The notes under the pieces are model-generated. The model had not been told where the DNA came from. It made no database searches and saw only the letters and a list, made by a program, of their open reading frames with translations. Shown here piece after piece: positions 4,886 to 24,175 of a DNA stretch of 24,376 bases; the first letter of the stretch is position 1, and every line of letters starts with the position of its first letter. Made by a program: the position numbers and the translations under genes. This DNA comes from PVC group bacterium (lineage in GTDB: Bacteria; Auribacterota; Erginobacteria; Erginobacterales; Erginobacteraceae): the NCBI GenBank assembly GCA_043804695.1, contig JAZDIV010000079.1, forward strand, positions 1-24,376. The letters run 5' to 3'.

Positions 4886-7800
4886 TCACCGGCCCCGGAA
4901 CGGCAGGCGGAAATCATCCGGGTGGGGGACGAACTTGAACTGCGATGGGGTGGACCGGGGAATGGGGCCGAAGGGATCGCCGGGGTTGAACGGGGTATCG
5001 GGCAATTGGGGCATCGTCACGTTGGGTAGAAATAACTTCGGTTTGATTATTCCGGGAACCGGCCAGTATTCATCCGCGCCGATGTCATAAATATTTTCCG
5101 ACCCGTCTTCTCCCACGCCGGAGATATCGATCGGACGGGGCTGCCCGTCGATGTCCACCTGCGGAACGTCAGGTCCGGCGGTTCCCCGGTCGATGCAGGG
5201 TGACTGGGACGAGAGGTGATAGAGGGGTTCACCATCGGCAAAGAGCGGGTCCTGGTTAATGTTTCCCTGACCTCCGTCCCAACCTCCCTCGATGTCGCAG
5301 TGGGCCACCGCGTCACTGCTTTTGGGTGAATATATCTGAGATGATTCAGGCGCCTGGTTATCCCACACGATTGAATTACCGAGATCGGGCTTGAGAGAAC
5401 TGTAGTACAATCCGCCGCCCGCGACATGGGCGAAGTTCTCGACGATGGTGTGGTGGATCACCGCCGGCGCCGGCTTGATCGGGAAGCCATACATTGACGC
5501 AGGTGCCGGAGTAAAATAGATCGCCCCTCCGTACCCGGCCCGGTTTCCGGCCATGATGTTATTGAAAAGCGTCGGGTTGGCCGCACTGTACAGCCCGCCC
5601 CCTCGCTCATCGGCGGAATTGCCGCAGATCACGTTGGCGGCCAGTACCGGGGACCCCAGCAATAAATACACCCCGCCTCCGTCCCGGGCGACGTTGTTCG
5701 TGATCAGGTTCCTCTCCAGGGTGGGAGATGAGAAGAGGCAGCAAATCCCGCCGCCCGTCTCCGATGATCCGCACCGGATGGTGAAACCCCGGAGGACGGA
5801 AGCCGGTCCTTCCCCCGAGTCGAAGGTGACGACGCTGCCGCCCTGCTGGCCGTTAATGATCGTGTTCTCCACTACGGAAGGATCGGAGGGGTTTTCGCTC
5901 CTGAGCGTCACCGCCTTGCCGTAAAAGTTAATGATTTCGGCGTATTCGCCCGGTCCGACGATGATCGTGTCCCCGCAGCAGACCAACGGTTCGGAGAGCG
6001 CCCGGCCGATCGTCCGCCAGGCGGCGCCGGTCTCTCTCACGGCGGCCGCGTCCAGGGCATCGTCCCCGTCCTGGCTCACATAATAGATACAGGGATGAAT
6101 GGCGTCGCCGGGGTCGGTGCCGTTTTCGTATTCCTCGACATTCGTCCAGCCGTCTCCATCATAATCCTCCCACGGCTCCTGGCCTGTTCCACCCAGGTAA
6201 TGCAGCTCCCAGTCGTCGGGCAGTCCGTCACCGTCGGTATCGGTGAACAGCCATTCGTCCGCCCCCATGTCGGGACCGCCGCCCATCGGGCGCGGGTCGC
6301 CGTCGATGTCCTCCCCGGACGGGCAGCTTGTCGAGCCGGAGTCGATACAGGGTGAGCCGTAGGTCAGGTGGTAGTCACCCGCCGCTGGGTTCAGGAAGAG
6401 AGGGTCGGCCGTGATATTCCCGACCCCCGAGCCGGTCCATGCCTGTTCCAGGCAGGAGTGGTTAACGATCAATGCCGCTTCACCGTCGGTTATCTGTGTG
6501 CTGTCCTTACCCCAGTTCCCGTATATGATGCAATTACCGATCGTGAGTTCGCCTCCGGCACAGGAGATTCCGCTCATCCCCTTTTCGGCGAAGTTGCCGG
6601 TGATCGTGACTCCGTTAAATACCGCGGAAGACATTCCTCCGTAGAAGGCACCGCCGGCGGTGTGCGCGTAGTTGGCGGCGATAACGGAATCACGCACGAT
6701 CGGATCGGAATTAAAGGCCGCGATCCCCCCGCCTTCATCTGCCCGGTTACCGGTGATGAAATTGTTGGTCAGGGTGGGTGAAGCCAAGTGACAGAAGACG
6801 CCGCCGCCATGCAGGGCCTTCCCGTTTCGAATCATGAATCCGGACAGAATCGTATCGGGCCCCACGCCGGGATGAAACGATACGACACTTCCTTCTTCGC
6901 ACCCGTCAATGATGGTCACGTTTTGCTTGAGGTTCCGTTCCCAGGTGACCGGATGGTATCCGCCGTAGAGCTTAACCCCTGCGGGTATGGACACGGTTTC
7001 ATGGTACGTGCCGGCCGATACCCGGACAATGGGGCAGAGACTGTCGGCCGCCTCTTCGATGGCGTGCCCGATCGTTCGCCACGGAGAATCCTGGCTGCCG
7101 TCGTTTAAATCAGACCCCACCGGACTCACGCAGTGGTACACTATCGGCCCGGTCGTGAAACTGAAGCAGATGCCTCCATTATCCTCCGTCGTCGTATTGC
7201 CGATCAGGTCGGACGATACGACCTTGAAAAAATACGTTGTCTCGGGCTGGAGGTTGTCCAGCAGGATGAAATGGGATGTCACCAGCGCTTCGTTTTGTTC
7301 CACGGATACGAGTTCACCGGGGCCGGTTCCATACTGAACGATGCTGTCCCCGGAAATGTCGGTCTCCCATTCTATCCGGGCCCGGGTGCAGCCTGCTTCA
7401 GATGTGACATTCATGATAACCGGAGGGAAGAGAGAGACGAGTGCCGTGTCGGTTGCGGTTGCCGTCACCCCGCTTCCGTCGTCGTCATCGTCATAAGAAG
7501 CGGTGATAGTGTCCCCATGGGATACCTGGAGTATGCCGTCGGGCAGCGGGACGCCGGTCTCGATCTCCAGGCAGCCGAAGAAGAGGCCGGTGCCGGGCTG
7601 GAATTCCGTCAGGATCAGCGATTCGGGCTCGGTCTCCGAGGAGCTTTCGATGTAAACAACCACCGTCTCGACGGTACCGGGCTCCTGGTTCAGGTCCTGG
7701 TCGGAGACGAGGATACAGAGCTGAGAGGGCGCCGTCACAAAGTCCGCGATGATATCAACATATCCCTGGGAAGAGCAGGGTATGATCGGGGTGCAGGGAT

Positions 7801-9595
7801 CCCCGAAGAGGTTCAACTGGTAGTAGCACCAGCGCATGTCCTCGTCATCTACCCGGTAGGCATTATCCTCCTTGGAATCCTGATTCATCTCTCCTAACCG
7901 GGAGATCCCTTCTCCGAAGAACGCGTCCCAGAACTCCCGGTTATACCGCTGGGATGCCCCGTCGGTTGAGTCCGGGACCAGCGCCGCCTTCCCGTTCCGC
8001 GCGTTCATTATCACGGCAAAGGCGCCGTGCTCCATGGTGGTGATCACTTCGGCGAAGCATTCTTCCGTATCAAATCCCCCCGGCCGGCATCCCTGGGAAT
8101 AGACGAAGAAATAGTCGGTGTTCTTCAGGGCGGACAGATCGTCGGTATAGAGCTTCATGGCGTAGTCGTAATCGCTGTGCCCGATATGGTTGACCAGGTG
8201 GACGCCGTCATTGAAGATCTTCACCAGTTTGTCGGGCGGCCAGTTGTGGTCCGGTTCCCAGTCGGCGTCGTAGAGCGTTTTCAGGTTGAAGTAGTCGAAG
8301 GACGAGAAGCCCTCGGTGTGGTAGCCATACGCGTCGGATCCCTGCGCTATCTTCTCCTGGAACCCCTTCCCGTAGGTGGCTATCCCGCCGAACCCGGCCC
8401 ATTCGCCTACCAGGCAGGCCCGGCCGAGCGGACTCCCGGCGGCGTCCTCGTAGGAAATCGTTTTGTTGACGAAGTGAGTGACCTCGGCCTCGTTCGCCAC
8501 GGCGGCTCTTCCAATGAGGATCTCCGCCATCAGGGCCGCTTCGTCCACCCCGTCGGCGTTCTCAGCCGCGCATTCGCCGTAGACGCCGTCAGCGTCCTGG
8601 TCGAAGGTGCCGCTTAAACCGGCGTAGTAGAGGTCGGCCGGGACGTCCCCGCTGTTCGCTCTGAGTTCTCGGGGAGGGATGATATCCTTGTCTCCCCCCA
8701 GCAGAACGTATTCCGTGTCCCAGTTTTGATAGGCATCGATGATAAAGTTTCGTATTCTGGTCTGATCGTCCTCACCGCCGTCGGGTCGCGTTCCGGGGTA
8801 AGTGGTGTAGATGAAGTCGGTATTGACGATAATTGAATTAATCCCCTGCCCTATCCGGTGATCCCGGAGAGGCACGAAGGAATCAACGAGATTCGCACTC
8901 GTGATGATCACGTGCCGGAAGTCACCGGGCGGAAGCCCGCTGTCTCCCATCAGCATATCCGGTTCCCCGGAGAGGTAGGTATCGAATACCCACTGATCCT
9001 TATTGTCGACCAGCTCCTTTACCTTTTCCAGGGCCCTCGCCTTGGGAGGCAGTGTATTCCTGTCCGGCCGGGACGCCTTCCCGACCACGACTTCCACGGT
9101 CAGGTCACTGTAATAGGAAAGCCGGCCAGAGGCGGGGGTGTATTCCACCGGATAGAGATTGATGAAGAGGATTGAATAGCCATTTTTAGTACGGATAACG
9201 GCCCGGGTTGCGATCTCCGGGGGGTAGGGTTCACATGAACGGTACACCGCTTCATCGAGCCTGGTGGGCTCGATCGGCCCCCGGTAATCGAGCGATACGG
9301 TTTCGGGATCCGGCTCGACCAGGTAGTTCCCGCGGATACCGATCTTTTGCCCGGGGACCACCCGCACCGCGCGGACTTCCGTCATGTACGGGATAAGCAA
9401 CTTGACGGATCTGACCGGGAGCAATGGTTCACCGGTCCGACCCATGTTGTCCAGGCCCTTCATGACCACCCGGTGATAGCGTCCCTGTCTTGACACTTCC
9501 GGATGAGGAAATCGTACGGTGTGCCGGATTTCCTGCGCCGCAGAAGATGCCGCCAGCAACGGTAAGAGTCCCAAAACCAGCAGGTATTTTTTCAT
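4886..9595 (-). CDS. Secreted multidomain C25 (gingipain-like) cysteine peptidase: propeptide, C25, Ig/FN3-like domains, two right-handed beta-helix modules, TSP3-like Ca-binding motif, Pro-rich tail, 1569 aa
   Basis: Signal peptide ending ASSAA; propeptide motif GEPLLP; C25 motifs YVLLGGD, ADLYYA, catalytic NHIGHS and SQGC, LNLFGDP. FN3-like LDNLQPETTYFFKV. Repeated GGGI/GGGV beta-helix turns, each module closed by YHL...SPCID...D.GADE. DTDGDGLPDDWE motif. Confidence 0.92.
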   Translation of the reverse strand: MKKYLLVLGLLPLLAASSAAQEIRHTVRFPHPEVSRQGRYHRVVMKGLDNMGRTGEPLLPVRSVKLLIPYMTEVRAVRVVPGQKIGIRGNYLVEPDPETVSLDYRGPIEPTRLDEAVYRSCEPYPPEIATRAVIRTKNGYSILFINLYPVEYTPASGRLSYYSDLTVEVVVGKASRPDRNTLPPKARALEKVKELVDNKDQWVFDTYLSGEPDMLMGDSGLPPGDFRHVIITSANLVDSFVPLRDHRIGQGINSIIVNTDFIYTTYPGTRPDGGEDDQTRIRNFIIDAYQNWDTEYVLLGGDKDIIPPRELRANSGDVPADLYYAGLSGTFDQDADGVYGECAAENADGVDEAALMAEILIGRAAVANEAEVTHFVNKTISYEDAAGSPLGRACLVGEWAGFGGIATYGKGFQEKIAQGSDAYGYHTEGFSSFDYFNLKTLYDADWEPDHNWPPDKLVKIFNDGVHLVNHIGHSDYDYAMKLYTDDLSALKNTDYFFVYSQGCRPGGFDTEECFAEVITTMEHGAFAVIMNARNGKAALVPDSTDGASQRYNREFWDAFFGEGISRLGEMNQDSKEDNAYRVDDEDMRWCYYQLNLFGDPCTPIIPCSSQGYVDIIADFVTAPSQLCILVSDQDLNQEPGTVETVVVYIESSSETEPESLILTEFQPGTGLFFGCLEIETGVPLPDGILQVSHGDTITASYDDDDDGSGVTATATDTALVSLFPPVIMNVTSEAGCTRARIEWETDISGDSIVQYGTGPGELVSVEQNEALVTSHFILLDNLQPETTYFFKVVSSDLIGNTTTEDNGGICFSFTTGPIVYHCVSPVGSDLNDGSQDSPWRTIGHAIEEAADSLCPIVRVSAGTYHETVSIPAGVKLYGGYHPVTWERNLKQNVTIIDGCEEGSVVSFHPGVGPDTILSGFMIRNGKALHGGGVFCHLASPTLTNNFITGNRADEGGGIAAFNSDPIVRDSVIAANYAHTAGGAFYGGMSSAVFNGVTITGNFAEKGMSGISCAGGELTIGNCIIYGNWGKDSTQITDGEAALIVNHSCLEQAWTGSGVGNITADPLFLNPAAGDYHLTYGSPCIDSGSTSCPSGEDIDGDPRPMGGGPDMGADEWLFTDTDGDGLPDDWELHYLGGTGQEPWEDYDGDGWTNVEEYENGTDPGDAIHPCIYYVSQDGDDALDAAAVRETGAAWRTIGRALSEPLVCCGDTIIVGPGEYAEIINFYGKAVTLRSENPSDPSVVENTIINGQQGGSVVTFDSGEGPASVLRGFTIRCGSSETGGGICCLFSSPTLERNLITNNVARDGGGVYLLLGSPVLAANVICGNSADERGGGLYSAANPTLFNNIMAGNRAGYGGAIYFTPAPASMYGFPIKPAPAVIHHTIVENFAHVAGGGLYYSSLKPDLGNSIVWDNQAPESSQIYSPKSSDAVAHCDIEGGWDGGQGNINQDPLFADGEPLYHLSSQSPCIDRGTAGPDVPQVDIDGQPRPIDISGVGEDGSENIYDIGADEYWPVPGIIKPKLFLPNVTMPQLPDTPFNPGDPFGPIPRSTPSQFKFVPHPDDFRLPFRGR

Positions 9596-9698
9596 TTTTG
9601 ATTTTTCCGGGTTAAATGGTTTCTTGGGCGAAAACTATGCACGTTATTAAGAAGAAAGCGGTTTATTGGCTTCTTGGCGGCGGTTTCTCCGTATATGA

Positions 9699-9734
9699 TT
9701 ACAATGCCCGGGAAGCCGATACCTTCCATTTTTT
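9699..9734 (-). promoter_or_regulatory. Conserved bipartite upstream motif, copy 2 (candidate promoter of the 1569-aa C25 gene)
   Basis: Minus strand AAAAAAT-GGAAGG-TATCGGCTTCCCGG-GCATTGTAA, about 100 nt upstream of ATG 9595. Confidence 0.6.
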
Positions 9735-9865: not shown

Positions 9866-11587
9866 TCAGCGTCCCGGGACGGCCGGCCGCTCCGCGGGCG
9901 CCGGGTCGGGTCCCGGCGGGAAGGATAGCGGGGGCGGAGGCTCGATCAGGAGGAGTTCCGCCATCAGCGCAGGGGGAAAAGGTCTTTCCGGGACGGTCCG
10001 GAGAGGGATCGCCGGGGGCAATCCCCGGCATAGCGTGCCGGCGATGAACCCGACCCAGACCGTGTAGGTGTTGCCGATAAACAGCCCCGGCCCCTCGCCG
10101 TCCACGTGTTTATCCTCGCAGGGGATGAAGTTTCTCGCGGTGACGGTGACGTCGAATTCATCCCACCCGGCGGGGACGGAGAGCTTGAGCCGTCCCTCAT
10201 TGTCGGTCTTCCCAACGAGAAACTGGTTGCCCTGTTTCCTCAGGCAGACGGTCGCCCCCGCCACCGGGATCCATTTTTTCCCTGCCCGGAGGGGATAACC
10301 GGGTGGTGATCCGGACACTTCCAGCGGAAGCGGGTACCGGATATAGATCGGCAGTTCGGGATCACCGAGGAGGTTTATGTTCTCCATATCGTAGCGGCGA
10401 ATGGCCTCATTCGTGACTATCCCCGGGTTTCCTTCTTCCTCGACCGAAGCCTCGTACATGGCGATCTTTCCGGCGTCCATTACCGGACCCATCTTCCCGC
10501 TCTCCGCAAGTTCCTGGTAGCACCCGTCGAATAACCCGTACTTGAAGCCCGGCCCGCCGCTCCTGGCAGGTCCGATAAACCCGATGCCACCCCGTCCCGG
10601 AAGTTTGAGAAGCAACTCCCCGATCCCGTTCTCGCCGGGAGGATAGGTCCAGTTCGGGTAGGGATGTGTTTCGAGGTCGAACTGGCCGGTGGAGCAGCCG
10701 GCGCTGATGACCAGGGGAAGGCGGCTCCCGTTGTCGAGCCATTCGAGGTAGTTGTAACCGAGGATGTGCATCCCCCAGGGTGAGCCGTGGCCATAATATC
10801 CCGCGACGCTCACCCCCTGATTGATCTCATCGAAGAACGGGGCCGGGTTGTAGATCGAGGGCGTTGTTATTATTGTCGTAAAACCCGGAAGAGCGGACTC
10901 GAGAAGCTGCGCGTCTTCCGGTCCGTATTCCCCTATTTCAAGTTCGGTGCCGAAGAGGAGGCCCCGGGAGAACCAGTCGCACCCCGTGTTCCCGGGATAT
11001 TTTTCGTAATCGAGTATCTTCTGGACCATAACCTCCAATTCTTCCGGGGTTCGGGCGGGCAGGCGGCCGACATGGATCTCCGGGAATGGGCCGTCCCCCA
11101 TGATCCCGTAAAAGATGTCTGAGACCACCAGCCCGTCGGTGTAATAGAGATCTTTCCCCGTATCGTCCGGGCGGTAGTGAGGGGGGATGTCCTCCGCGTC
11201 CCCGGCCAGGAGAAGGTAGGTGATCGGCGTCAGGGACTTCTCATGCAGACTCTTGATAGATGCCGAAATTTCCTCGAATCCGGGATCGTCACCGATCTCC
11301 GAGAGCTCTATGATTCGGGTCCGAAGGCCTTTTTTCTGTTTCCACTCGACCAGCGGTTCGATGGCCGGCTTCAGTTCGTCGGGAACGACGATCAGGTAAT
11401 CGACCGTATTATAATGAGGGAGGAACTGATCGAGGCGGGTTTCAGGTCCTCGGGCGGGGACCTCCACCTGCCGTCGCGGACTGAATCTCGAGTATTCCCT
11501 TCCCTCCTGGCCGAAGGCAGCCGGGTAGATACCCGCCCCGGCCGCCAGAAGAAGCGTCAACAATGCGGCGCGGTTAACTGACTTCAT
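9866..11587 (-). CDS. Secreted C25 (gingipain-like) cysteine peptidase with C25_C Ig-like domain and Pro-rich tail, 573 aa
   Basis: DYLIVVP, WKQKKG, YLLLAGD, VGRLPA, KILDYE, catalytic YYGHGS and SAGCSTG, NLLGDP; C-terminal GATVCL...VTVTARNFIP. RBS GGAGG; signal peptide. Confidence 0.92.
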   Translation of the reverse strand: MKSVNRAALLTLLLAAGAGIYPAAFGQEGREYSRFSPRRQVEVPARGPETRLDQFLPHYNTVDYLIVVPDELKPAIEPLVEWKQKKGLRTRIIELSEIGDDPGFEEISASIKSLHEKSLTPITYLLLAGDAEDIPPHYRPDDTGKDLYYTDGLVVSDIFYGIMGDGPFPEIHVGRLPARTPEELEVMVQKILDYEKYPGNTGCDWFSRGLLFGTELEIGEYGPEDAQLLESALPGFTTIITTPSIYNPAPFFDEINQGVSVAGYYGHGSPWGMHILGYNYLEWLDNGSRLPLVISAGCSTGQFDLETHPYPNWTYPPGENGIGELLLKLPGRGGIGFIGPARSGGPGFKYGLFDGCYQELAESGKMGPVMDAGKIAMYEASVEEEGNPGIVTNEAIRRYDMENINLLGDPELPIYIRYPLPLEVSGSPPGYPLRAGKKWIPVAGATVCLRKQGNQFLVGKTDNEGRLKLSVPAGWDEFDVTVTARNFIPCEDKHVDGEGPGLFIGNTYTVWVGFIAGTLCRGLPPAIPLRTVPERPFPPALMAELLLIEPPPPLSFPPGPDPAPAERPAVPGR

Positions 11588-11621
11588 GGTTCATCCTCCC
11601 CCGGCTCTTTTTTTATCATGG

Positions 11622-11858
11622 CATTGTTCACAATAAACCGGATTTATGGATACATCGGGGTACGGCCGGGGAAATGATTCGGGACGGGATCCGGTCCGGG
11701 GCGCGGCGGGAAGGGGTTATCGGGCAGTTCCCGGGGTAGCTCTTTCAGCAGGAGCTTTTTATCCGGCAGCGGCCGGAGCTTGTTGGATGGTTTCCAGCCG
11801 CCGGCCTCCAGCGCGGGCTTCACCTTCGAGCACCCGCCGACCGTTATCTTGACCGTGA
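11622..11858. repeat. 237-bp direct repeat, copy A (3' end of the 1390-aa S8 gene plus 22 nt past the stop)
   Basis: Ungapped match to 19158-19394 with 12 mismatches by manual count (about 95% identity), offset 7536 bp. Confidence 0.95.
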
Positions 11859-14800
11859 TGGAAAATGTAAAGGAAGAAAAGGCTTTTCCGTCCGAGACGG
11901 TTATCATGATCTTCGAATAGACCCCGGCCTGGCGATAGGAAGGTGCCCACTTGAACCAACCTTTGGAATCCACACTGGCCCCGGGCGGCAGATTGCTTCC
12001 GGAGAAGACCAAAGGGTCATAATCAGGATCGCTGGCCGATACTTTAAATTCCAATTTATCGCCCTCATAAATTGTAATATCATTAATTTTTGTTATGGAT
12101 GGCGCGTGATTCTTTTCGTACCGGGCGGTCTTCTGATTATTAAATCTCCACATCGACCACTCGATTCGCTCCGGGTCTCCCTCGGTTTTTAAGACGTAAA
12201 TATTAACCGGTGTGTGCGGTTCACAAAAATACGTCCCCTCCTGGCAATATTTCCCGGTTACGACGATCTCGGTCTTGCCATCATTGTTAATATCCGCCAG
12301 AACCGGATCTTCGAAACACTCCCCGTCGGAAGCAAGCAACGTCTCCGTATACCATTGGCTTTCTTTCTTAAAAAAGCGCCTTACCCAATATTTTTCGTTT
12401 TGTCCAACTCCCTCTTCTCCAGCCGTGATTATATCCGGGCAACCATCATCATCATAATCCCCTACCACTGATTCTCCCGAACCATCGGCAAGCATATCCC
12501 CCATCATTTCTGAGTAGGCAACTTTCTCGATCAAGTTTCCCCATCCGCCGACGATAGTTAACCCTTTATCATAGAACGAGATCAATTCCGGTACGTCGTC
12601 ACCATTTAGATCGGCCAAGCTTGCGGTTGAGGTCGACGTGTCTTTATCCAGCTCTCGCGGATCATTCGAGAAAAGTTCTGACCCATCGTAACGATATACT
12701 TTCAGCCCATAATCAGAAGATCCGTCCTGCTTGCAGTCGATGATAATCTCGTCGCACTTATCCGCATCGAGATCGCCTGATATTACTTTTCCTGTTCCAA
12801 GAGACTTTAGCGCCGAGTCGCTTTCAAATAATTCCTTTTGCCAAAAAGGCAGGAACTTATCGCCGTCCACCTTAACCGTTTCCAGGTAGAACTGTTTCTG
12901 CTTCAAATTATCGCTCTCTTTGGTGACAACATACAGACCCGCTATTTTTTTCCCTTTCTCCACATAGGTAAAGACACCGCCGGTATGGATAATCGGGTGC
13001 TGAGGAATGAACTCACCCAACCAATCTCCCTGACTGGAGAGAATCAACAATTTATTGCCTTCGCCTGTTTCGTGGCGGGCACATAATATAATTTCATCAC
13101 TCACGTCTTGATTGACATCAAATATCATGATGCTCTTGCTCGGCGTTTCGGATGGGGGGAAAGAATTTTCCTGGACTTCGGTTACCGAATCCAGATTCAG
13201 ACCAACCAGAGCATCGACCTTGATTTTATCCCCGGGCGGAGAGCTCCCGGACGTATAGCATACCAGCGCGTCCTTTTTACCGTCTTTATCGACATCTACT
13301 ATCGGACAATTCTTCAATGATTTAGAGCTTTCGCTGAAATACTGATCGACCAGATTGCCCCAGGCGTCGTAAACAAACAGCTTGGGATTCTGTTTCGAAT
13401 AGCCCGGAGCCCAAGGTTTATAGGAAGAATTCTTATGGCAATGAAAAGGGAATATTATTTCTTTGGCGCTATCCTGGTTAAGGTCAAAAATAGTTTTGTC
13501 ATTGAATTCACCACCGGTGATCTGATCCGGCTTTTGGGGCCAACCGTCAATAATGTTAGAATTTATATTTATCGAACGTTTTTCTTCATTAATATATCCG
13601 TTATAGGATGCCACGAGCTTGAGGGTGACCACCCCATCCCCGGATAAATTCAAGCTCCCCAGGTCCATCTCCCCGATGGTGTCGTATTCGTTGGGCAATG
13701 CCGCCTTGCCCTCAAGCATCTTCTGGTAAGAATCGGGGTCTTCACCAATCCCGGCCCAGATTTCATAATGGTCCAATGTACTGCCGCTTATCCTCCCTTT
13801 AATTGTAACTTTGCTCTTTAATCCGTATGACTCTCCCGAGAAGGGAATCCAGATTCCGGTTTTGTTAACGCTGAACCGCTTTCTCACTTCGAAATATTTG
13901 TCTGTTTCGCCCGGGACCGCCAACCTCGCCCTCACCGTATATAACCCGTCCGGCCGATCAGTAGAAAATGGGCAGATCGCACGATTGTCGGTAGTCACCT
14001 TATAAAAAAGTGGATCCCATGTCTCCGGGTTCAAGCCTAAGCCGCAGTCTAAAATAAGATCTTGCGCCAGAAATTGGCTTCCCAAACCTTTGACCATAAT
14101 AGAGAAATCTTGATTGATCTCTATCTGGTCCACAAAATAATCATCTGGAAATAGCTTCTTGGGTCCGAATTCAATAGTCAGTGCTGGAATGTCGGGATGA
14201 TTCAATAAGAACTCCAGCGCCTTTGAGGCGTTCAACTTGCCGTAACCGGAGGCGTCGTCAAAGCCCGGCTCATATGTGAAACCAGATAACTCATTTTTGT
14301 AACTCAAGTCTTCGGCGCTACACCGCAAAACCTGCCTCACCTGTTCATTATTCAAGTCGGGCCGGAGAGCGCATAAGAGCGCGGCCACCCCGCTCACATA
14401 GGGAGCAGAAAATGATGTCCCGGAACCCTGGCCATATAAACCTGCCTCATCAATCGGCTCCAAGGCGGTGGGGTTCTCGCTCGTATCATGGGAATACAGG
14501 GAGAGAATAATTACCCCCGTAGCTAACAGGTCAATCATGCCGTAATTTGAACTACTAAATTTTTTGTACAACTCTTTGCCCGGTATTCCGACATAAAACC
14601 CATTACCGACGGAGATCACTCTATCGCAGTTGTTGGGAAAATATAATTTGACGTCCTGGTAATCGTTTCCCGCCGCAAAAACCACAATGCACTCTTCTTT
14701 TTCCGGATTATAATCGGAAGAGTCGGGATCGTCCGGCAAAACGGCATACTCGATGGCCTGATATAATCCTGAATCAAATGAGGTTCCCCTCCAACTGCAA

Positions 14801-15840: not shown

Positions 15841-18800
15841 TTACTGGTTCAACCAATCGACCGCCTTTTTCAAGAGTAGTGCCGCCTGGTCGGGGTTTTT
15901 GATTTTGGAGAACGGGAAGCTCAGGACAACGACTTTATAATAGATGGTGGGGTCCTCGTACCTGCTCCCGACATATGGATTTTCAAGCGGTTCTTCCGGT
16001 GTGAAGATTCCCTTCGCGACGGCATCAGTCGCGAATGAATTGCAGTTGCCCCAGGGTGTCCCGTACAGAGCTACATTCAGTTCTGAGGTGATGGGGTCGC
16101 CGGCTACTCCGTTCGCGCGGCTGATCGTTTCATACAAATCCGAATCCGGGGAAGTGACCGAGTTGATTTTGAGGTACCCGGACATAAATTCTGAGGGCAT
16201 CCAGAAAATGCCGCGTCCGGCCAAGAGAAGCCTACCCCCTCCTTTTAAGTACGGGGTCGCGCTTTTCGTCCTCAAGTTGCAGAAAGGATTCCCGATCCCG
16301 CTATCCCACAACACCACGTCGTACGGGAAGAGATCGCCCGGTTCGGGAAGGGAGTGCTGCTCCCAAGCCAGGCTATCCCACACATCATAGTCAAAACCAT
16401 ACTTATCCAACGCGCTCTCAAACGCCGACGGGTCTGCCCCATATCCATCGTCATCCACGACCAGGATCGGAGCATTTGGCGTAGTGGTAAAAACACCGGG
16501 GACGACCTGGTTGACTTCGTTACCCACCTTGTCCCGGACCTTTAGGATCAATACATAGGGGTAAGTTGGGACAAGATCAGAGATCAATACCTCGTGCGTG
16601 ATCCCCATATATGGGAGACATCCTCTTTGGGGGACCGTCATCGGTATATAAATTTTACTTGGATCGATATCGCAATAGGCTTCGGCGATCGGCTGAGCGA
16701 GTTCGTCCGTAATGAATTGCAATATGAAGTGAGTCGGCCCCGCGGTAACCTGGATATCGGAAACGACCGGTGGCTGGGCGTCGACCTGCGAGGTTGACTT
16801 TACGAGGAAAGGTTGGCCATTGGCAGCTTTAGGATCGGTATATTCGACGGTAATCACGTCCCCGTGCTTTACCTTGAGCTGGGTGGTCTTCTGGGGCGGA
16901 TCGAGGGTTAAGTCCACGTATCCACGAAAAAGCGAGGGATCGTTGCCATAGCGGTGGAGCATGATCGCCTTCCCCCGGCTCCAGTCGCTCTTCACCTTGA
17001 CCGTGACCGATTGTGTCCCGGCGGGGAGGTTGAGATCGGTCAGCCAGATCCTCGCGGTCGCGCCCGCCGGATAGAGATCGCGGTCAAAGCGGACCGAAGC
17101 CGTCTCGCTCCTCACCTTCAGGGGGGTCTCGGGATCGCCGAGCAGATTGAGCTCGTATAAGTCGTACAAACCCCAGATACCCATCCAGAGGTTGTCTTCC
17201 TTGGAATCCTGAAGCGTCTTGCCGAGGTTGGTGATCCGCTCCATGAAGAGCGCGTCCCAGAACTCCTTCGCGCAATGCTGGGAAGAAGAGTCGGTCCCCT
17301 CATACGACCACCAGCCGTAGCGGGAGTTGGCGACCACGGCGAAGGCGCCCTTCTCCCCCGTCACCAGCTCTTCGGCCACGCAGTCGGGACCGTATTCCTG
17401 GAAGGTGCCCAGGAGCCGGTTATCAAAGGCCCCCGCCCAGCACCCCCCGAAGTAGGCGAAGAAATGATCTTCGTTTGTCAGGAGGTCCATGTCCGTGGAG
17501 TAAAGCTTCACGACCTTATCAGTGGTGGCGTGCCCTTCCTGGGCGATGAGATGGACACCCTGGTTGATCAGGTCCACGATCGCCTGCTGCGGCCAGCCGT
17601 CCGGCCCGTTCTCCTGGTCGTAAAGTGTCTGGACATTCAGAAACGGGCACGCCGAAAAGCCAGGTTTGTATATATGGGGGAACGGGTTCGGATAATGAAG
17701 ATCTTCCAGGTAATATTTCCCGTAGGTTGTATCGCACTTCCACTGCTCCTTCCCGATATAAGCGCCGAGCCATTCTCCGACCAGAACGGCCTGGTGGAGA
17801 TACTCGCCGGCGGAATTCTCATAGGCGACGGTCTTACTCACGAAATGCTTGACTTCCTCGATTGAGTCCACCGGGGCCCGGCCGACGTACACCTCGGCGA
17901 GCAAATCCACCAGGTCTCCGCCCTCTCCATCATCGAGCTCGCCGTAGATGCCGTCGGCGTCAGCGTCAAACGTCCCGTCGAGGCAGGCGTAGTAGATGTC
18001 CGCCGGGATCCAGTTGTCCCAGGTCATGCTGCCTTCCTCATTGGCGGCGTCCGGGTCCGATAGCAGCCGGTGGGGAACGACCACCTCGCCCCCGCCGCCG
18101 TCGGAATCTCCGCCCAGGAGCACGTATTCAGTCCCCCACACGTTGAAGGCGTCGGTGATGAAGTTCCGGATCCGGGTCTGATCGTCCTCTCCGCCCTCGG
18201 GCTTAGTTCCGTCATAATTGGCGTAAATCCACTCAGTCGACACTATCTTGCTCGAGATCCCTCTCTTTTTCTTTTGCTCCATTAAAACATACCAGCTGTT
18301 CTCGCCCTGATAGTCCATGAATTCCTGGCTGGTGATGATCACGTATTTGACCTCGTAAGCTAAAGGAGTCAGGGACGATGCGCCGCCACCAGCCTGGCTG
18401 CGGCTGGAGGCCTGGCGGTAATGCTCGTAGAATCCGTTAACGTCCGCTTGATTATCGGCAAGGCTTTTGAGTCTCCTTTTCGTCTGCTCTCCGTCCCTGA
18501 ACCGGGGGGCGACAGCGCCCGGACTCGAACCGGACCACTTTTTCGGAACGAGTTCCAGATCGATGCTTAAAGAACTGAAATAGGAGAGCTTCCCCGCCGC
18601 CGGCAGATATTCCACCGGATAGAGGTTGATCACGGCCAACCGGCAACCGTTTAGCCGCTGGATTCCTAAGAAAGAATATGTTTTTGCAGGATAAGGGGAG
18701 CCGCTGCGGTATATTTCCGAAAGAACTGTTGTAGCTTCACCCGGGCAGGGACAAGCGCCATGGACTTGACGGGATCCCGGCCTCACCAGGTAATTGCCCG

Positions 18801-19086
18801 CAAGAGACCTCTTTGCCCCCGGGCGAATCGTTATGTTGATCACTTCGGTTTCGGGGGGCAGTAGCAGCTTGACCGGCCGGACGAGCAAAGACGGCTCGCC
18901 TTCTTTCCCGAAGGTCTCCGTCCCCGCCATACTGACATCGTGATAGCCATCAACTGCAGTAACGGTAGGGGGCTCGAATTTGCAGGTGTAGCTAACGGTC
19001 TCGGCATGCCCGCTCCCGGCCAGGATTAAAACCGCCGCGGAGAACAACGACAGGAAGGCGGCTGCTCTAATTGAAAGATTTTTCAT
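15841..19086 (-). CDS. Secreted C25 (gingipain-like) cysteine peptidase with propeptide and C-terminal accessory domains, no Pro-rich tail, 1081 aa
   Basis: GEPSL propeptide; YVIITS, YVLLGGD, PADIYYA, VGRAPV, catalytic QEGHA and GGCWAGAFD, LNLLGDP; terminal ILVVDDDG...AVDWL alpha/beta domain. RBS AAGGAG. Confidence 0.92.
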   Translation of the reverse strand: MKNLSIRAAAFLSLFSAAVLILAGSGHAETVSYTCKFEPPTVTAVDGYHDVSMAGTETFGKEGEPSLLVRPVKLLLPPETEVINITIRPGAKRSLAGNYLVRPGSRQVHGACPCPGEATTVLSEIYRSGSPYPAKTYSFLGIQRLNGCRLAVINLYPVEYLPAAGKLSYFSSLSIDLELVPKKWSGSSPGAVAPRFRDGEQTKRRLKSLADNQADVNGFYEHYRQASSRSQAGGGASSLTPLAYEVKYVIITSQEFMDYQGENSWYVLMEQKKKRGISSKIVSTEWIYANYDGTKPEGGEDDQTRIRNFITDAFNVWGTEYVLLGGDSDGGGGEVVVPHRLLSDPDAANEEGSMTWDNWIPADIYYACLDGTFDADADGIYGELDDGEGGDLVDLLAEVYVGRAPVDSIEEVKHFVSKTVAYENSAGEYLHQAVLVGEWLGAYIGKEQWKCDTTYGKYYLEDLHYPNPFPHIYKPGFSACPFLNVQTLYDQENGPDGWPQQAIVDLINQGVHLIAQEGHATTDKVVKLYSTDMDLLTNEDHFFAYFGGCWAGAFDNRLLGTFQEYGPDCVAEELVTGEKGAFAVVANSRYGWWSYEGTDSSSQHCAKEFWDALFMERITNLGKTLQDSKEDNLWMGIWGLYDLYELNLLGDPETPLKVRSETASVRFDRDLYPAGATARIWLTDLNLPAGTQSVTVKVKSDWSRGKAIMLHRYGNDPSLFRGYVDLTLDPPQKTTQLKVKHGDVITVEYTDPKAANGQPFLVKSTSQVDAQPPVVSDIQVTAGPTHFILQFITDELAQPIAEAYCDIDPSKIYIPMTVPQRGCLPYMGITHEVLISDLVPTYPYVLILKVRDKVGNEVNQVVPGVFTTTPNAPILVVDDDGYGADPSAFESALDKYGFDYDVWDSLAWEQHSLPEPGDLFPYDVVLWDSGIGNPFCNLRTKSATPYLKGGGRLLLAGRGIFWMPSEFMSGYLKINSVTSPDSDLYETISRANGVAGDPITSELNVALYGTPWGNCNSFATDAVAKGIFTPEEPLENPYVGSRYEDPTIYYKVVVLSFPFSKIKNPDQAALLLKKAVDWLNQ

Positions 19087-19157
19087 CTCCTTCAGCTCCT
19101 TGATTGCAATTCACATAGATATTCACTGGCGATAAGCGCTACTGATTGCTCTTCAGT

Positions 19158-19394
19158 CATTGTTCACAACGAACCGGATTTATGGATACATCGGGGTACG
19201 GTCACGGAAATGATTCGGGACGGGATCCGGCCCGGGGCGCGGCGGGAAGGGGTTAGCGGGCAGTTCCCGGGGTAACTCTTTCAGCAGGAGCTTTTTATCC
19301 GGCAGCGGCCGGAGCTTTTTGGATGGTTTCCAGCCGCCGGCCTCCAGCGCGGTCTTCAGCTTCGAGCACCCGCCGACCGTTATCTCGACCGTGA
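19158..19394. repeat. 237-bp direct repeat, copy B (3' end of the 513-aa gene plus 22 nt past the stop)
   Basis: Ungapped match to 11622-11858. Confidence 0.95.
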
Positions 19395-20721
19395 CCTGGT
19401 CCGTTCCGCCCCATCCGTCGTCTGCCGTAAAAAGCAAGATGTAAGGCTCCGGACTCGCCTGCCCCGGGGCGGTCTTCCAGCTGAAGGCTCCCGATTTCGG
19501 GTCGAGCGAAGCGCCATCCGGAAGCGTACCATCCCCGGCGCAGTAGGACGGCGGGTCGCCGTCCGGATCGGTCGCCTCGAGCGTGAACAGGAGCGTTCCC
19601 CCGGGGCAGACCGTGAATGGTCCGGCCTCTTCCAGGACCGGGGGGCGGTTGATGTCTTCGATCTCCAGCTCGTGGCCGTAGGAGAGGTAGAGCTTTCTTC
19701 CGAAGACGCAGACGCTGAAAAACTGCTGGCCGGACTCCAGGTGCTCGACTAACCACGGTGTCGCGAGGTCCATTCGGTAGTAGCCGGGCGTGCCGGTGCC
19801 GCATTCGGCTTCGTCTTCCAGGTATACCCGGCCGCCGCTTTCGAACATCCGCCGCACGTACAGGCCCGGCACCTTGGTGATCTTGGTGATCTCCCTGGTG
19901 GGTAAATCCAGGCGGTAAAGATAGTCGCAGGTGTCCAGGAAATAGGCCGCGTCCCCGACGATCAGGAAAAAATTTTGCAGCTCCTCCATTCCGGCGGAAA
20001 GTATATCGAGACCCGTCATCGTCACGGGATCGATGACCAGCACCATCCCCCCGTCGACATAACCGTCGAACTCTCCCCACTTGATCGTATCAGCCCGGGC
20101 ACAGGTCGTGGTATAGAGGTAAATCCCGTCGGACGCCAGGCTGTGGGTGGAATCGGGGGCCCAGACCCCGGCGATTACCTTCATCCCGTTCGGATCGATC
20201 TTGAAGATCTGCTCGCTTTGCGGTTTGTAAGGCGGATCATAACCGTGGTAGGCGGCGGCATATAGGTACCCGTCTTTTCCCGCCACGATGCCGGTGATAT
20301 TGTATTCGCAGGGGTTACACCAGCCGGTTCGCTGGAGCGTTTCTTTGTCAATCTGGATGACGTAGCCTTCGTCGGTCCCCACATAGAGATACGCTTCGTC
20401 CGAGGTCATGATGGTGATCTCGTGATCCCAGGTCAGGAATGTGTCCGTCATCAGGGCGGAAGCGGGGATTGTTCCCTGAAGGGCGAAGCCATGATCGTAC
20501 ACGTTGATGTAGCCCATGTTGTACCCGGGCCAGGTTTTTCCCCATAAGCCCTTTTTCTCGTAGGCGTTGTAGATGTAGTCCGCGTCGACGTAGTTCGTTG
20601 TCAGAAAATAATCGGGGTCGTCCGGTTCGGCCTCCGGAAAGAACTCGCCCTGGACGGGCCGGAGTCCGCCCAGAAGAAGGATTGAGGACAAAAGAGCCGG
20701 CAGAAGCATTCGCTTTTTCAT
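19180..20721 (-). CDS. Secreted hypothetical protein: probable beta-propeller + putative Ig (He_PIG-like) domain + Pro-rich tail, 513 aa
   Basis: Signal peptide MKKRMLLPALL...VQG. About 40-aa repeats of type D(G)xYLY....(K/V)IDP. NRPPVL...ATDPDGDP...LPDGASLD...FSW Ig module. RBS AAGGAGG. Confidence 0.85.
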   Translation of the reverse strand: MKKRMLLPALLSSILLLGGLRPVQGEFFPEAEPDDPDYFLTTNYVDADYIYNAYEKKGLWGKTWPGYNMGYINVYDHGFALQGTIPASALMTDTFLTWDHEITIMTSDEAYLYVGTDEGYVIQIDKETLQRTGWCNPCEYNITGIVAGKDGYLYAAAYHGYDPPYKPQSEQIFKIDPNGMKVIAGVWAPDSTHSLASDGIYLYTTTCARADTIKWGEFDGYVDGGMVLVIDPVTMTGLDILSAGMEELQNFFLIVGDAAYFLDTCDYLYRLDLPTREITKITKVPGLYVRRMFESGGRVYLEDEAECGTGTPGYYRMDLATPWLVEHLESGQQFFSVCVFGRKLYLSYGHELEIEDINRPPVLEEAGPFTVCPGGTLLFTLEATDPDGDPPSYCAGDGTLPDGASLDPKSGAFSWKTAPGQASPEPYILLFTADDGWGGTDQVTVEITVGGCSKLKTALEAGGWKPSKKLRPLPDKKLLLKELPRELPANPFPPRPGPDPVPNHFRDRTPMYP

Positions 20722-20731
20722 GGAACCTCCT

Positions 20732-20773
20732 TCAAATCGCAGTGGTGGGGCATATCCCCGTAATTTTTTTCAT
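20732..20773 (-). other. 13-codon upstream mini-ORF MKKITGICPTTAI (leader peptide or relic gene start)
   Basis: GGGGAGG RBS followed by ctctac-ATG; its TGA overlaps the AAGGAGG RBS of the 513-aa gene. Confidence 0.35.
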
Positions 20774-20821
20774 GTAGAGCCTCCCCGGTTGAAGTACCTG
20801 GAGAATTATCCTTCTCATTTA

Positions 20822-20857
20822 ATACAATGCGAAACCGGCGATTTCCTTCCCGATTTT
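20822..20857 (-). promoter_or_regulatory. Conserved bipartite upstream motif, copy 3 (candidate promoter of the 513/1081/1390/573-aa operon)
   Basis: Minus strand AAAATCG-GGAAGG-AAATCGCCGGTTTC-GCATTGTAT; shares an exact 15-mer with copy 1 (plus strand ttccttcccgatttt at 20843-20857 and 4808-4822). Confidence 0.6.
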
Positions 20858-20876
20858 TTCTCGTACGAGAAAAAAT
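20853..20876. repeat. Perfect 24-bp palindrome ATTTTTTCTCGTACGAGAAAAAAT
   Basis: Self-complementary with no loop; lies directly upstream of the GGAAGG element of motif copy 3. Confidence 0.85.
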
Positions 20877-20895
20877 AATCCGGGATAACCCCCGG
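20870..20895 (-). terminator. Possible intrinsic terminator after the 1076-aa S8 gene
   Basis: Minus strand CCGGG(G)-GTTA-(T)CCCGG followed by ATTATTTTTT, about 50 nt after the stop codon. The stem is short. Confidence 0.4.
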
Positions 20896-20944
20896 CGCGA
20901 GCTTCAAATTGCTCCGAGGGTGGGGGAAACCGGGCCGGTTTCTT

Positions 20945-23900
20945 TTATCTTCCCCGGGGAGGCGGACAGGGAGTTGGCGTCGGCCAGGGAAAGGGGTTGA
21001 ACGGATCATTCGGATCGGGCAGGAACTTCGGCTGCCGGGGCATCAGTATATCATGGGAGGGGAACTGCAGCTTGATAACCGAACCCGAATATTCATCAGC
21101 GCCGATATCGAACTCTTTTCCCGTCCCGTCCTCACCTTTTCCCGGGATATCGATCGGCCGCGGATCGCCGTCTATGTCGATACCGGGAACGTATTCCTGG
21201 AAGATCCCCGTGTCTATACAGGGGGAGAAATACTGCAGGTGGTAATCCCCCGAGCCCGCGTCGACAAAGACGGGATAGGCATCCAGGTTGTCCCCGCTCG
21301 ACCACCCTCCCTGGATATTACAGGAGGTGACTTCCGGACTGCTCCCGGGGTCGCAGTAGAACTGCGGAAGACCCTGAGCCGTATTCATCCAGAAAATCGA
21401 GTTCAAAATTAACGGAGACGAACTCTCGCAGTAGAGACCGCCTCCCTCCTGCCCGGCCATACTGAAAGATCCGGCGGCGTTGTCGGCAACGGTGTTGTTA
21501 ATGATCGCGGGAGAAGAATAGAGAAGATAGATTCCCCCTCCTTTCCCGGCCGCCTCGTTCCGGGTAATAAAATTATTGGTGATCTCAAAAAAGGAATGCT
21601 TGAGGTAAATACCGGCGCCGTCGGTCTCCGACTGATTGCCGGTGATGTCGTTTCCGGTGATCTCTCCGGAGGTAAAGCTGCAGAGAACCCCCCCTCCTCC
21701 CTTGGCCGCGAAGTTATCCTTGATGGTGTTGTCGGAGATGACAATGGATGACCAGAAACAGTAGATCCCCCCACCCCATATCTCGCCGCCGTTCAGGATC
21801 GTAAACCCGGAGAGGGAGGAAGAAGAAGCCCGTTCAAAAGCAACAGCCCGGTCTCCGCCTCCGTTTATGGTGGTCTCGTTCAGTTCTACGTCTCTCGACC
21901 AATAATCCGGCTCATATCCGCCAAAGATGCAGAGACTCTGGAGCCCGCTGACCACAATGTTCTCGAAATAGGTGCCACGTGCCACATGTATGTTCGTGAA
22001 GGGCAGAGCGGCATCTACCCCGTCCTGGATGAACCGGTAGGGATCATCTTCGGTCCCGAGCCAGGGGGGGGTCAGGTTCTCGCAACTCACGTAAATATCC
22101 TTCCAGTACCCCGGGACGACAATCGCTTCGTTTCCCGGGTCTCCTCCGCAAATGAGATTCAACTGGAATGGGAGATCATGGTCCGCCGGAAAATTATTCC
22201 TGACCGCAAATGTGAATTCGGACGTCGCGAGTTCCCCGTAGCCTATCCCGTCAAGGATCTGCTGATTATCCATCATCTCCACATAGGGGTCATTCGTGTT
22301 CAGTGCCGTCGATACGTTCTGGACCGCTTCTCCGCTGTTACGAAGAGAGACCTTCAGAACTATCATCTCTCCCGGATCCGCCAGGCCATCACCATTTCCG
22401 GAACTGTCGTCCACCTCGACATGTTCTACAGCCACCTGGGGAGCGGGCGGCGGAGAGCCCAGCGCCGTGAGGGCATTTATCCTCCCCGTTCCCAGTTTGC
22501 CTTCATAGCCTGGATTAAACCCATCGATCTCATCAGCCGTGTTTTTTATATGACAGATGACGGCCGCGTTACTCCAGTCCGGGTGGGCCGATAGGATCAG
22601 GGCCGCCAGGCCGGCCACATGAGGGCAGGCCATGGAGGTCCCGGCCGTCCGGTAATAACCCTCTGAGACCTTGATCTGATCCGCATTCAGGGCGAACTCG
22701 CAATCACCGGACATAGTGGACAATATATTATAATCAGGCGGGGGCGCTATCGGCTCATCCGGGTATCCCCCGCCCGGGGCGGAGACATCGACTCTGTCAC
22801 CCCAGCAGGACGTGTACCATTTTACATCGTCGGGCGTGGTGGCCGCCACGGTAAGAACCTCGTCCATATTATTGGGAGAATAGTAGGCGACATCGTCCCC
22901 GTTGTTCCCGGCAGCGAAGACCAGTATCACCCCCAGCCCGTAGGCGTACCTGACAACCTCCTCGACCGGGGGATCTATCGGGTAGGGAGAATGATGTCCC
23001 CAGCTGTTGTTCACCACATCAGCGCCGTTATCGACAGCGTACTGTAGCCCCTCCACGAAAGAGTCGAGACCTTTATCACTCCCGGCTCCATTGACCGCCA
23101 TTATCTTACTGAACGGGGCGACACCGGCGATACCGATGCCGTTATTCGCCACCGCCGCTATTACCCCGGCGCAGTGGGTCCCGTGACCGTAACCGTCCCG
23201 GGGATCGTATTCTTTCTCCCCGTTCTCGATGTCGGGCTGGACATTCCAGCCCACCAGGTCGTCGGCAAAACCGTTTCCATCGCTGTCCTCGCCGTCGAGA
23301 TCGTCCGGGTCGAGTACCCACGTCTGGCCTATCGCGTCCCACTGCAGCACCCCGTCGCCGTCCAGGTCCTCCCCGGGGTTCTGCCAGATGTTCTGTTTGA
23401 GATCCTCGTGCCCGTAATCGACTCCGCTGTCCACGACCGCCACGACAATTCCTCCCCCGGGGGGTGTCTCACCCCCATCGAAGAGGCCGTTGTTGTTCTT
23501 GTCGAACGCGTTCCAGGCTTCGATGGCCTGGATCTTCTGTAACCGCCACAGATCGGGATAGTCCTGTCCCCAGCTCCCTTCTCGGAAGTGCCCCGGGTTG
23601 GCAGCATCCTCGATGAACTCATCATCCGGGATGTATGGCACCTCCGGGAGCGGGTCGGAGTTGAGCTGAGCATAAGAAACCGGGCAGGCCAGGTCCACCT
23701 CACTTAGATCCCCGTACTCCTTTGCCGCGGCGCCGATATCGACTCCTTCATCCATCTCGAGCCGGTACCAGAGAGATATATCGGGTATTTGCGCCCCACT
23801 CCGGGCCCGTGCGGCCCGTACCGGGAACTTCTTTTTTATCTCCTCCACGTGCTTTTGAAAGCTCATTCTCTGGCTCTTCATGCGCTTTACCATACCCGGG

Positions 23901-24175
23901 AAGAGCGGCCGTATTTCTTTAACGCCATATGTCCTGTTCATCCCGGCCACGCGCCACGGCAACCGACCGTATCTGCGATAATAGGAAGCGGTGGCCGGCG
24001 TGAACTTGACGAGGATCCGGCCGGGAACGACAGCATCTTCCTCTGCCCGGAACCCCTCTCCCTGCTCCGGCAACTCCGGCGGCGTGGAAGACGTTGAATA
24101 CGATATGTCCCTCGCCGGGGAGTGCCCCGGCAGGAGCAGCGAAAAACCGAGAACTACTATGCACAGCATTTTCAT
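20945..24175 (-). CDS. Secreted S8 subtilisin-like serine peptidase with prodomain, Ig-like domain, right-handed beta-helix and Pro-rich tail, 1076 aa
   Basis: VPGRILVKF prodomain; triad VVDSGVD, GHGTHCAG, GTSMACPHVAG; FAAGNN; LGTGRINA; GNGDGLADPGE domain; GGGIY beta-helix repeats; YHL...SPCID...DIGADEY. Confidence 0.94.
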   Translation of the reverse strand: MKMLCIVVLGFSLLLPGHSPARDISYSTSSTPPELPEQGEGFRAEEDAVVPGRILVKFTPATASYYRRYGRLPWRVAGMNRTYGVKEIRPLFPGMVKRMKSQRMSFQKHVEEIKKKFPVRAARARSGAQIPDISLWYRLEMDEGVDIGAAAKEYGDLSEVDLACPVSYAQLNSDPLPEVPYIPDDEFIEDAANPGHFREGSWGQDYPDLWRLQKIQAIEAWNAFDKNNNGLFDGGETPPGGGIVVAVVDSGVDYGHEDLKQNIWQNPGEDLDGDGVLQWDAIGQTWVLDPDDLDGEDSDGNGFADDLVGWNVQPDIENGEKEYDPRDGYGHGTHCAGVIAAVANNGIGIAGVAPFSKIMAVNGAGSDKGLDSFVEGLQYAVDNGADVVNNSWGHHSPYPIDPPVEEVVRYAYGLGVILVFAAGNNGDDVAYYSPNNMDEVLTVAATTPDDVKWYTSCWGDRVDVSAPGGGYPDEPIAPPPDYNILSTMSGDCEFALNADQIKVSEGYYRTAGTSMACPHVAGLAALILSAHPDWSNAAVICHIKNTADEIDGFNPGYEGKLGTGRINALTALGSPPPAPQVAVEHVEVDDSSGNGDGLADPGEMIVLKVSLRNSGEAVQNVSTALNTNDPYVEMMDNQQILDGIGYGELATSEFTFAVRNNFPADHDLPFQLNLICGGDPGNEAIVVPGYWKDIYVSCENLTPPWLGTEDDPYRFIQDGVDAALPFTNIHVARGTYFENIVVSGLQSLCIFGGYEPDYWSRDVELNETTINGGGDRAVAFERASSSSLSGFTILNGGEIWGGGIYCFWSSIVISDNTIKDNFAAKGGGGVLCSFTSGEITGNDITGNQSETDGAGIYLKHSFFEITNNFITRNEAAGKGGGIYLLYSSPAIINNTVADNAAGSFSMAGQEGGGLYCESSSPLILNSIFWMNTAQGLPQFYCDPGSSPEVTSCNIQGGWSSGDNLDAYPVFVDAGSGDYHLQYFSPCIDTGIFQEYVPGIDIDGDPRPIDIPGKGEDGTGKEFDIGADEYSGSVIKLQFPSHDILMPRQPKFLPDPNDPFNPFPWPTPTPCPPPRGR

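Follow-up and report, generated by a model that had tools for sequence, protein, structure and literature searches.

A Family of Proline-Rich C-Terminal Tails on Exported Proteins of an Auribacterota Genome: A Candidate Docking or Retention Motif

Introduction

Most known surface-sorting systems were first recognized by common C-terminal tags on unrelated exported proteins. The closest described case is the type IX secretion system (T9SS), with its C-terminal domain (CTD) and its C25-family sortase PorU. C-terminal extensions of another kind, pro-sequences, are known in secreted subtilases. Here we describe Pro-rich C-terminal tails on exported proteins encoded in the window, which is the whole of contig JAZDIV010000079.1 (C79, 24,376 nt) from an Auribacterota genome (G000) of 2.97 Mb in 155 contigs that is 88% complete. 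These tails are one real family, whose C-terminal motif is new, lacks annotation and shows signs of being functional and portable. Our preferred, though tentative, reading is that they serve as a lineage-specific docking or retention motif. A tag with neither a membrane helix nor a folded domain would be a different way of surface sorting. The evidence comes from one genome, and its immediate value lies in a defined peptide for binding, cleavage or localization tests.

Results and Discussion

Six minus-strand open reading frames (ORFs) occupy positions 4886–24175 of the window, placed as in the initial annotation of this DNA. That annotation described five of six tandem secreted proteins with Pro-rich tails, and the ORFs, domains and tail strings were verified. 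The proteins of 1569, 573, 1390, 513 and 1076 aa carry tails of 59, 54, 64, 64 and 47 aa, encoded on the minus strand at 4889–5065, 9869–10030, 11647–11838, 19183–19374 and 20948–21088, respectively. The 1390 and 513 aa proteins have subtype A tails, with the core P-F-P-P-R-P-G-P-D-P at 11686–11715 in the former and the core at 19222–19251 in the latter. The 1569 and 1076 aa proteins have subtype B tails, for which the ungapped alignment proposed initially was reproduced; the final 13 residues of the 1569 aa protein are like the subtype A end. The 573 aa protein, with a shortened core S-F-P-P-G-P-D-P at 9902–9925, is the weakest member of the family. MAFFT aligned the 1076 aa protein's subtype B tail to subtype A along its whole length, so the two subtypes are considered one family.

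Two further tails were found on contig C102 of the same genome, one on C102a, a paralogue of the 513 aa protein, and one on C102b, a HExxH protein. A profile of all seven tails matched only these seven among 23,101 six-frame ORFs (E ≤ 5e-6), and the next match had E = 0.23. Every one of the seven matches lay at the extreme C-terminus. A hydrophobic, signal-peptide-like N-terminus, called by a hydropathy rule and not by a trained predictor, is present in all seven carriers; in all six window proteins, a basic stretch precedes the hydrophobic one. The initial annotation had anticipated that profile matches would be confined to the extreme C-termini of proteins with signal peptides, and this was the pattern in 7/7. 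The PF[PNG]P core that it had pointed out was present, but this short core is unspecific alone, with 179 matches in the six-frame ORF set. The longer, strict core F-P-P-x(0–1)-P-G-P-D-P was specific, giving 4 matches in the 23,101 ORFs. All four sit 10–13 aa from the C-terminus, and two of them are on contig C102. When the 1,099 ORFs of at least 400 aa were ranked by Pro content over the last 45 aa, the top five were all tail proteins.

Similarity beyond composition was assessed for six tails (1569, 1076, 1390, 573, C102a and C102b), which form 15 pairs, with 1000 composition shuffles each. The pairs 1569–1076, 1390–C102a, 1390–C102b and C102a–C102b were reached by 0/1000 shuffles, and a further four pairs by 1–7. 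Shuffling, which the initial annotation had named as a hazard for Pro-rich sequence, left 8/15 pairs standing at no more than 7/1000 shuffles and 7/15 weak.

Codon differences indicated protein-level constraint on the core. Of the 9 core codons conserved between the 1390 aa gene and C102b, 7 carry synonymous differences and 0 a non-synonymous one. The comparison of the 513 aa protein with C102a resolved the tail further. Body and He_PIG domain were 58% and 51% identical, with 10 and 0 gap columns, respectively. Within the tail, identity was 32% across the linker, with 9 gap columns, and 55% across the motif part, with 0 gap columns. A conserved motif next to a decaying linker is the pattern of a short linear motif within a disordered segment. 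AlphaFold assigned the tails a pLDDT of about 24–35. The mean was 42 for the 513 aa model and 53 for the C-terminal 384 aa of the 1076 aa protein.

The six genes encode different protein bodies. Pfam and NCBIfam assigned to the 1569 aa protein (4886–9595) a C25 propeptide and peptidase, two DUF1565 beta-helix modules and two choice-of-anchor Q domains ahead of the tail. The two copies of choice-of-anchor Q (NF041518) scored 32.9 and 30.5 bits against a cut-off of 25; the terminal copy, with 30.5 bits, lies at 5066–5221 and the tail comes directly after it. The 1076 aa protein (20945–24175) contains an S8 protease domain, a beta-helix and a choice-of-anchor-Q-like segment, and then the tail. 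This segment aligns to the choice-of-anchor Q segment of the 1569 aa protein; the NF041518 model itself gave no match there. The 1390 aa protein (11644–15816, low-G+C body) consists of S8, FG-GAP repeats, He_PIG and tail, and the 513 aa protein (19180–20721) of a propeller-like body, He_PIG and tail. The remaining two genes encode exported proteins that Pfam assigned as C25 peptidases, one of 573 aa with the tail (9866–11587) and one of 1081 aa without it (15841–19086), which has a C-terminal alpha/beta domain. Peptidase C25 (PF01364) was above its gathering score in the 1569, 573 and 1081 aa proteins (E 1e-51 to 7e-56), and inspection of the C25 sequences by eye shows G-H and G-C dyad motifs. 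Peptidase S8 (PF00082) was above its gathering score in the 1390 and 1076 aa proteins, with E-values of 5e-44 and 2e-54, respectively. A minus-strand GDSL lipase gene at 2960–4723 provides context, as it carries a Pro/Thr linker and the C-terminal FG-GAP-like repeat module usual in the lineage.

The initial annotation also placed the tail on unrelated passengers. Four kinds of preceding context are indeed present, namely He_PIG, beta-helix with choice-of-anchor Q, a C25 protein and the HExxH protein. Five independent appendages are not supported, since the subtype B pair was co-duplicated and the 1390/513 pair converted. About four independent tail contexts are left: He_PIG, beta-helix/choice-of-anchor Q, the 573 aa C25 protein and the HExxH protein. 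Between the 1569 and 1076 aa proteins, the entire C-terminal module aligns at 40% identity, from the beta-helix through choice-of-anchor Q to the first half of the tail. Because this alignment runs through into the tail, the subtype B tails are attributed to one duplication.

For the 1390 and 513 aa genes, a 237 nt tract on the minus strand (11622–11858), covering the tail and 22 nt past the stop, is 95% identical to 19158–19394. The codons just upstream of this tract do not align between the two genes. On nucleotide comparison, the tract is best described as a recent gene conversion or cassette transfer. The G+C content of the 1390 aa gene body was 0.38–0.56 in 200 nt windows, mostly 0.41–0.50, that of the tail tract was 0.57–0.60 and that of the contig about 0.58. 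Nucleotide identity is the stronger evidence of transfer, since Pro codons alone raise the G+C content of a tail. The region of the 1390 aa protein after the S8 domain (residues 560–1390, the sole part searched) had no close homologue. This S8 gene (body 11900–15816) is probably a foreign gene that was later given a local tail.

These observations bear on a first alternative, in which the tails are decayed interdomain Pro-rich linkers, left after loss of an anchor domain and spread by duplication and gene conversion with no specific function. Subtype B tails were inherited with their module, the 1390/513 tails are a recent conversion, and the ends of these ORFs are plastic, with a repeat element supplying the last five codons and the stop. 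In addition, the tail is restricted to one genome, and Pro/Thr linkers follow the beta-helix/choice-of-anchor-Q modules of relatives. Against this reading, the core is kept as protein despite synonymous divergence, and it is as conserved as the folded body while the preceding linker decays with insertions and deletions. The tails are also not Pro/Thr low-complexity sequence, their motif is always 10–13 aa from the end, and one tail was copied onto a compositionally foreign gene. We therefore regard linker remnants as unlikely.

The repeat element mentioned above is a hairpin repeat of ~44 nt, after which comes a short A/T-rich stretch that ends in ATG; copies lie on more than 25 contigs of the genome. 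The final five codons and the stop of the 1390 aa protein fall in one diverged copy (11619–11662, minus strand). Another (19156–19198) overlaps the 3′ end of the 513 aa gene and supplies the same elements. The final T-P-M-Y-P and stop of both proteins are thus repeat-encoded, and ahead of the repeat both tails end in Arg. The Arg-type ending reported initially follows the pattern described, with this correction for the 1390 and 513 aa proteins. Arg is the last residue in 3/7 carriers (573, 1569 and 1076), and most of the others have a basic residue near the end. Since Arg ends 11% of the long non-propeller ORFs in the genome, frequent C-terminal Arg as a rule of the tails is suggestive only.

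Gingipain-type C25 enzymes cleave after Arg or Lys. The Arg endings therefore favor a second alternative, in which the tails are C-terminal propeptides or processing sites and the enzymes stay latent or tethered until the island's own C25 or S8 protease removes the tail. The seven carriers include four proteases and one further protein with the HExxH motif, several C25 and S8 enzymes are encoded in this island and in that on contig C102, and the tails end in or near Arg. The pro-sequences of secreted subtilases provide a precedent. On the other hand, two carriers are non-enzymatic propeller proteins, and many Lys and Arg residues of the tails are followed by Pro, which usually blocks cleavage. 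Nothing points to actual cleavage. We consider a propeptide role improbable.

Searches against known domains, signals and structures supported the initial claim that the tails lack a described domain. No Pfam or NCBIfam model covers them, a profile search of the PDB with the tails gave 0 matches at E ≤ 10, and the ESM Atlas gave no usable match. The absence of a transmembrane helix was likewise borne out. Within the last 100 aa, the top Kyte–Doolittle mean over 19 residues was 1.36, in the 573 aa protein upstream of its tail, and the others were at most 1.11. A helix hidden by stop read-through or another frame was looked for in three-frame translations reaching from 240 nt ahead of each stop to 150 nt beyond it, and none was found. 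The 19-residue stretch before the 573 aa protein's tail (10031–10090) is moderately hydrophobic. Its hydropathy of 1.36 falls short of the values usual for membrane helices, and it probably represents the final strands of the domain in front of the tail.

Established signals were rejected as identities of the tail. The T9SS CTD model TIGR04183 (Por_Secre_tail) gave 0 matches at E ≤ 0.01 in this genome, which is 88% complete, and no tail had an NCBIfam match; of the type IX system, the search covered the CTD model. The initial annotation had taken the tail to stand in place of a T9SS CTD. This did not hold, because no T9SS CTD was found in the genome and the C25 proteins of relatives terminate either with the C25 domain itself or with a propeller module. 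PEP-CTERM (TIGR02595) gave 0 matches in a weak search whose controls also matched nowhere, and the tails have no membrane helix. Tripartite signals of the LPXTG, MYXO-CTERM and GlyGly-CTERM-like kinds were rejected for lack of a membrane helix and of any NCBIfam match. G-G-C opens two of the tails and is followed by charged, Pro-rich sequence. A type I secretion C-terminal signal was set aside because all seven carriers have signal-peptide-like N-termini by the hydropathy rule. The PPC domain PF04151 had no match in the six window proteins.

The C-termini of other exported proteins in the lineage place the tails in context. FG-GAP-like repeats occur in 89 ORFs of the genome, of which 80 are closed by a stop codon. 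In 60 of these 80, the final repeat reaches to within 1 residue of the C-terminus, and among the 60 there are 50 with five or more repeats and 36 that end exactly in P-V-T-R. Exported enzymes of many kinds, in this genome and in related ones, terminate in this FG-GAP-like six-blade propeller module; examples are those at 2960–4723, C143:24123–26426 and C105:6018–7874. The module looks like the standard surface module of the lineage. Three other proteins encoded in the genome have a terminal choice-of-anchor Q domain, and in 3/3 the propeller module comes directly after it. Because the propeller takes this position elsewhere, the subtype B tails occupy the usual slot of a terminal module. According to a preprint passage written on type A (bioRxiv 10.1101/2023.03.06.531300), "choice-of-anchor" is the name given to domains that precede alternative anchoring signals.

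The second island, on contig C102 (L001, 1–13149), encodes an Lcl_C protein with N-terminal propeller repeats, the HExxH protein with tail, an S1/P1 nuclease, a 411 aa ORF without a Pfam match, the propeller protein with tail and a tail-less C25 protein of 1105 aa. C102a is 55% identical to the 513 aa protein, and C102b is exported and unrelated to it. A propeller protein with tail followed by a tail-less C25 protein is a gene pair kept in both islands. The two tail-less C25 proteins are 46% identical overall and have a common C-terminal alpha/beta domain. This alpha/beta-looking domain of ~220 aa has no Pfam name and ends the 1081 aa protein (15841–16506). It recurs in C25 proteins of four genomes from two distant families of the phylum (G046, G048, G051 and G052), and some very long ORFs in G007–G009 match it more weakly.

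Three of the four genomes that share this domain, not G048, contain tandem islands with a PPC protein, a C25 protein, an MBL-type nuclease and an S8 protein (L089 in G046:C122, L090 in G051:C1 and L091 in G052:C38). All 10 products examined from these distant islands, the C25 protein included, end in TSP3 repeats and a tail of ~40 aa. This tail has I-N-F-Q-P, about 20 residues and then G-Y-G-W at the very end, without a Pfam or NCBIfam match. It was matched 16–38 times per genome in five genomes and not at all in the window's own taxonomic family. We propose it as a candidate unannotated C-terminal tag, more widespread than the Pro-rich tail. The wider pattern may matter more than the seven Pro-rich tails: across large parts of the phylum's secretome, proteins end in C-terminal modules that are lineage-specific and unannotated, and these are often encoded in islands with C25 peptidases.

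A third alternative is that the tail is a true sorting signal, which a PorU-like, tail-less C25 protein (the 1081 aa protein and its C102 paralogue) would recognize so as to attach its cargo to the surface without a T9SS. The gene pair of propeller with tail and tail-less C25 with an extra alpha/beta domain is consistent with this, as is the presence of the same alpha/beta domain in C25 proteins of the tag-bearing islands of other families. The C25 domains also match the NCBIfam model "type IX secretion system sortase PorU", although weakly and far below threshold, at 38–62 bits against a cut-off of 420. Against it, no T9SS CTD was found in the genome, no machinery was identified, and the C25 protein of the distant islands itself carries the tag. 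C25 genes occur in 36 of the 79 genomes of the phylum set (this genome and 78 others, one of them of the same genus and 89% complete), and the tail occurs in one. Complex prediction of the tail with residues 230–1081 of the tail-less 1081 aa protein gave a score of 0.00, which counts for neither side. A dedicated export or processing gene set alongside the tails, which the initial annotation had expected, was not found in this genome. Overall, we judge a true sorting signal of this kind quite unlikely. Bolder still is the proposal of a helix-less sorting signal read by the adjoining PorU-like C25 protein, as one of several tags of the phylum beside the P-V-T-R propeller and the 40 aa tail, with C25 enzymes acting as T9SS-independent surface sortases; to this we give very little credence.

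Returning to docking or retention, the family, position, constraint and between-gene transfer of the tail are as described above, and from them we infer a conformation, a binding role, a partner and a location. Each tail consists of a variable basic linker and then the conserved motif P-F-P-P-x-P-G-P-D-P-x-P-x-x-F, within a disordered C-terminal extension. The motif may take an extended, polyproline-type conformation. In that form it would serve as a tag for docking or retention. The products of both paralogous islands, i.e., C25, S8 and HExxH enzymes and a propeller protein, would thus be tethered to one shared partner, located in the periplasm or at the cell surface. The tail would thereby take the place filled by the propeller module in other exported proteins of the lineage.

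Several lines of evidence support this role. The profile is specific within the genome, its matches are at the extreme C-terminus and the carriers have signal-peptide-like N-termini. The core is kept at the protein level and is ungapped between the 513 aa protein and C102a. Tails follow four upstream contexts, the 237 nt tract is portable, and the position is that of an anchor. Finally, the islands of distant families carry a C-terminal tag of their own on 10/10 products.

Other findings weigh against docking or retention. There are only seven carriers in two paralogous islands, several of them linked by duplication or gene conversion, so part of the similarity among tails is shared descent. 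The seven weak pairs of the shuffle test (16–342/1000 shuffles) are the 573 tail with all but 1390 (four pairs), 1569–C102a, 1076–C102a and 1076–C102b; the 573 tail and several A-versus-B pairs are thus not clearly above shuffles. In relatives, the homologous beta-helix/choice-of-anchor-Q module is followed by Pro/Thr linkers and then by the propeller or other domains, which makes descent of the tails from linkers possible. The low pLDDT of the tails fits disorder and shows nothing on binding, and no binding partner or sorting machinery was identified.

The distribution of the tail also weighs against it. The subtype A profile had 0 credible matches in the 78 other genomes of the phylum, the same genus included; three foreign matches (E 0.004–0.007) were rejected, as each fell in the interior of a low-complexity ORF. 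In a set of 1.84 billion protein representatives, the same profile recovered four proteins of this genome and two foreign ones, which proved to be unrelated tandem-repeat proteins. Pattern scans of genome contigs and of metagenome contigs returned 155 and 149 matches, respectively, and no relative was confirmed among them.

A word search with the 1076 aa protein's tail found itself only, and the sole homologue of the 513 aa protein's body was the C102 paralogue. No description of such tails was found in the literature on Auribacterota or on C-terminal sorting, the latter judged among the matches listed. The consulted portion of one article (PMC9324843) mentions peptidases, but no C25 and no tails. 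Taken together, the initial interpretation of the tail as a C-terminal targeting, docking or processing signal is partly supported.

Comparison with Known Systems

The T9SS CTD with the C25-family sortase PorU resembles the present locus in two respects. In both, secreted hydrolases that are unrelated to each other, C25 and S8 enzymes among them, end in a common element, and C25-family genes lie in the same locus here. The CTD, however, is a folded domain of about 70–100 aa, whereas the tails are 47–64 aa long, Pro-rich and modeled with low confidence. The architecture of choice-of-anchor domains followed by LPXTG, PEP-CTERM or T9SS signals is similar in that two tails come directly after choice-of-anchor Q, where an anchor is expected. 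The known anchors are a membrane helix or a folded CTD, and the tails are neither.

Other extensions and linkers were also compared. C-terminal pro-sequences of secreted subtilases and the PPC domain (PF04151) are, like the tails, C-terminal extensions on secreted proteases, but the window proteins have no PPC match and the tail also occurs on non-proteases. The Pro/Thr interdomain linkers of secreted multidomain enzymes share with the tails a Pro-rich, disordered character and, in relatives, a position after the same beta-helix module. Such linkers are internal, low-complexity and unconserved, whereas the tails are terminal and have a positionally fixed, constrained motif.

EVH1 domains of eukaryotic cytoplasmic systems bind F-P-x-hydrophobic-P polyproline ligands. 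These ligands resemble the tails as short, conserved Pro-rich motifs that open with F-P-P in a disordered segment. No receptor domain was found here, and no search aimed at one was made. The difference lies in the setting, as EVH1 systems are eukaryotic and cytoplasmic and the tails described here are found on exported bacterial proteins.

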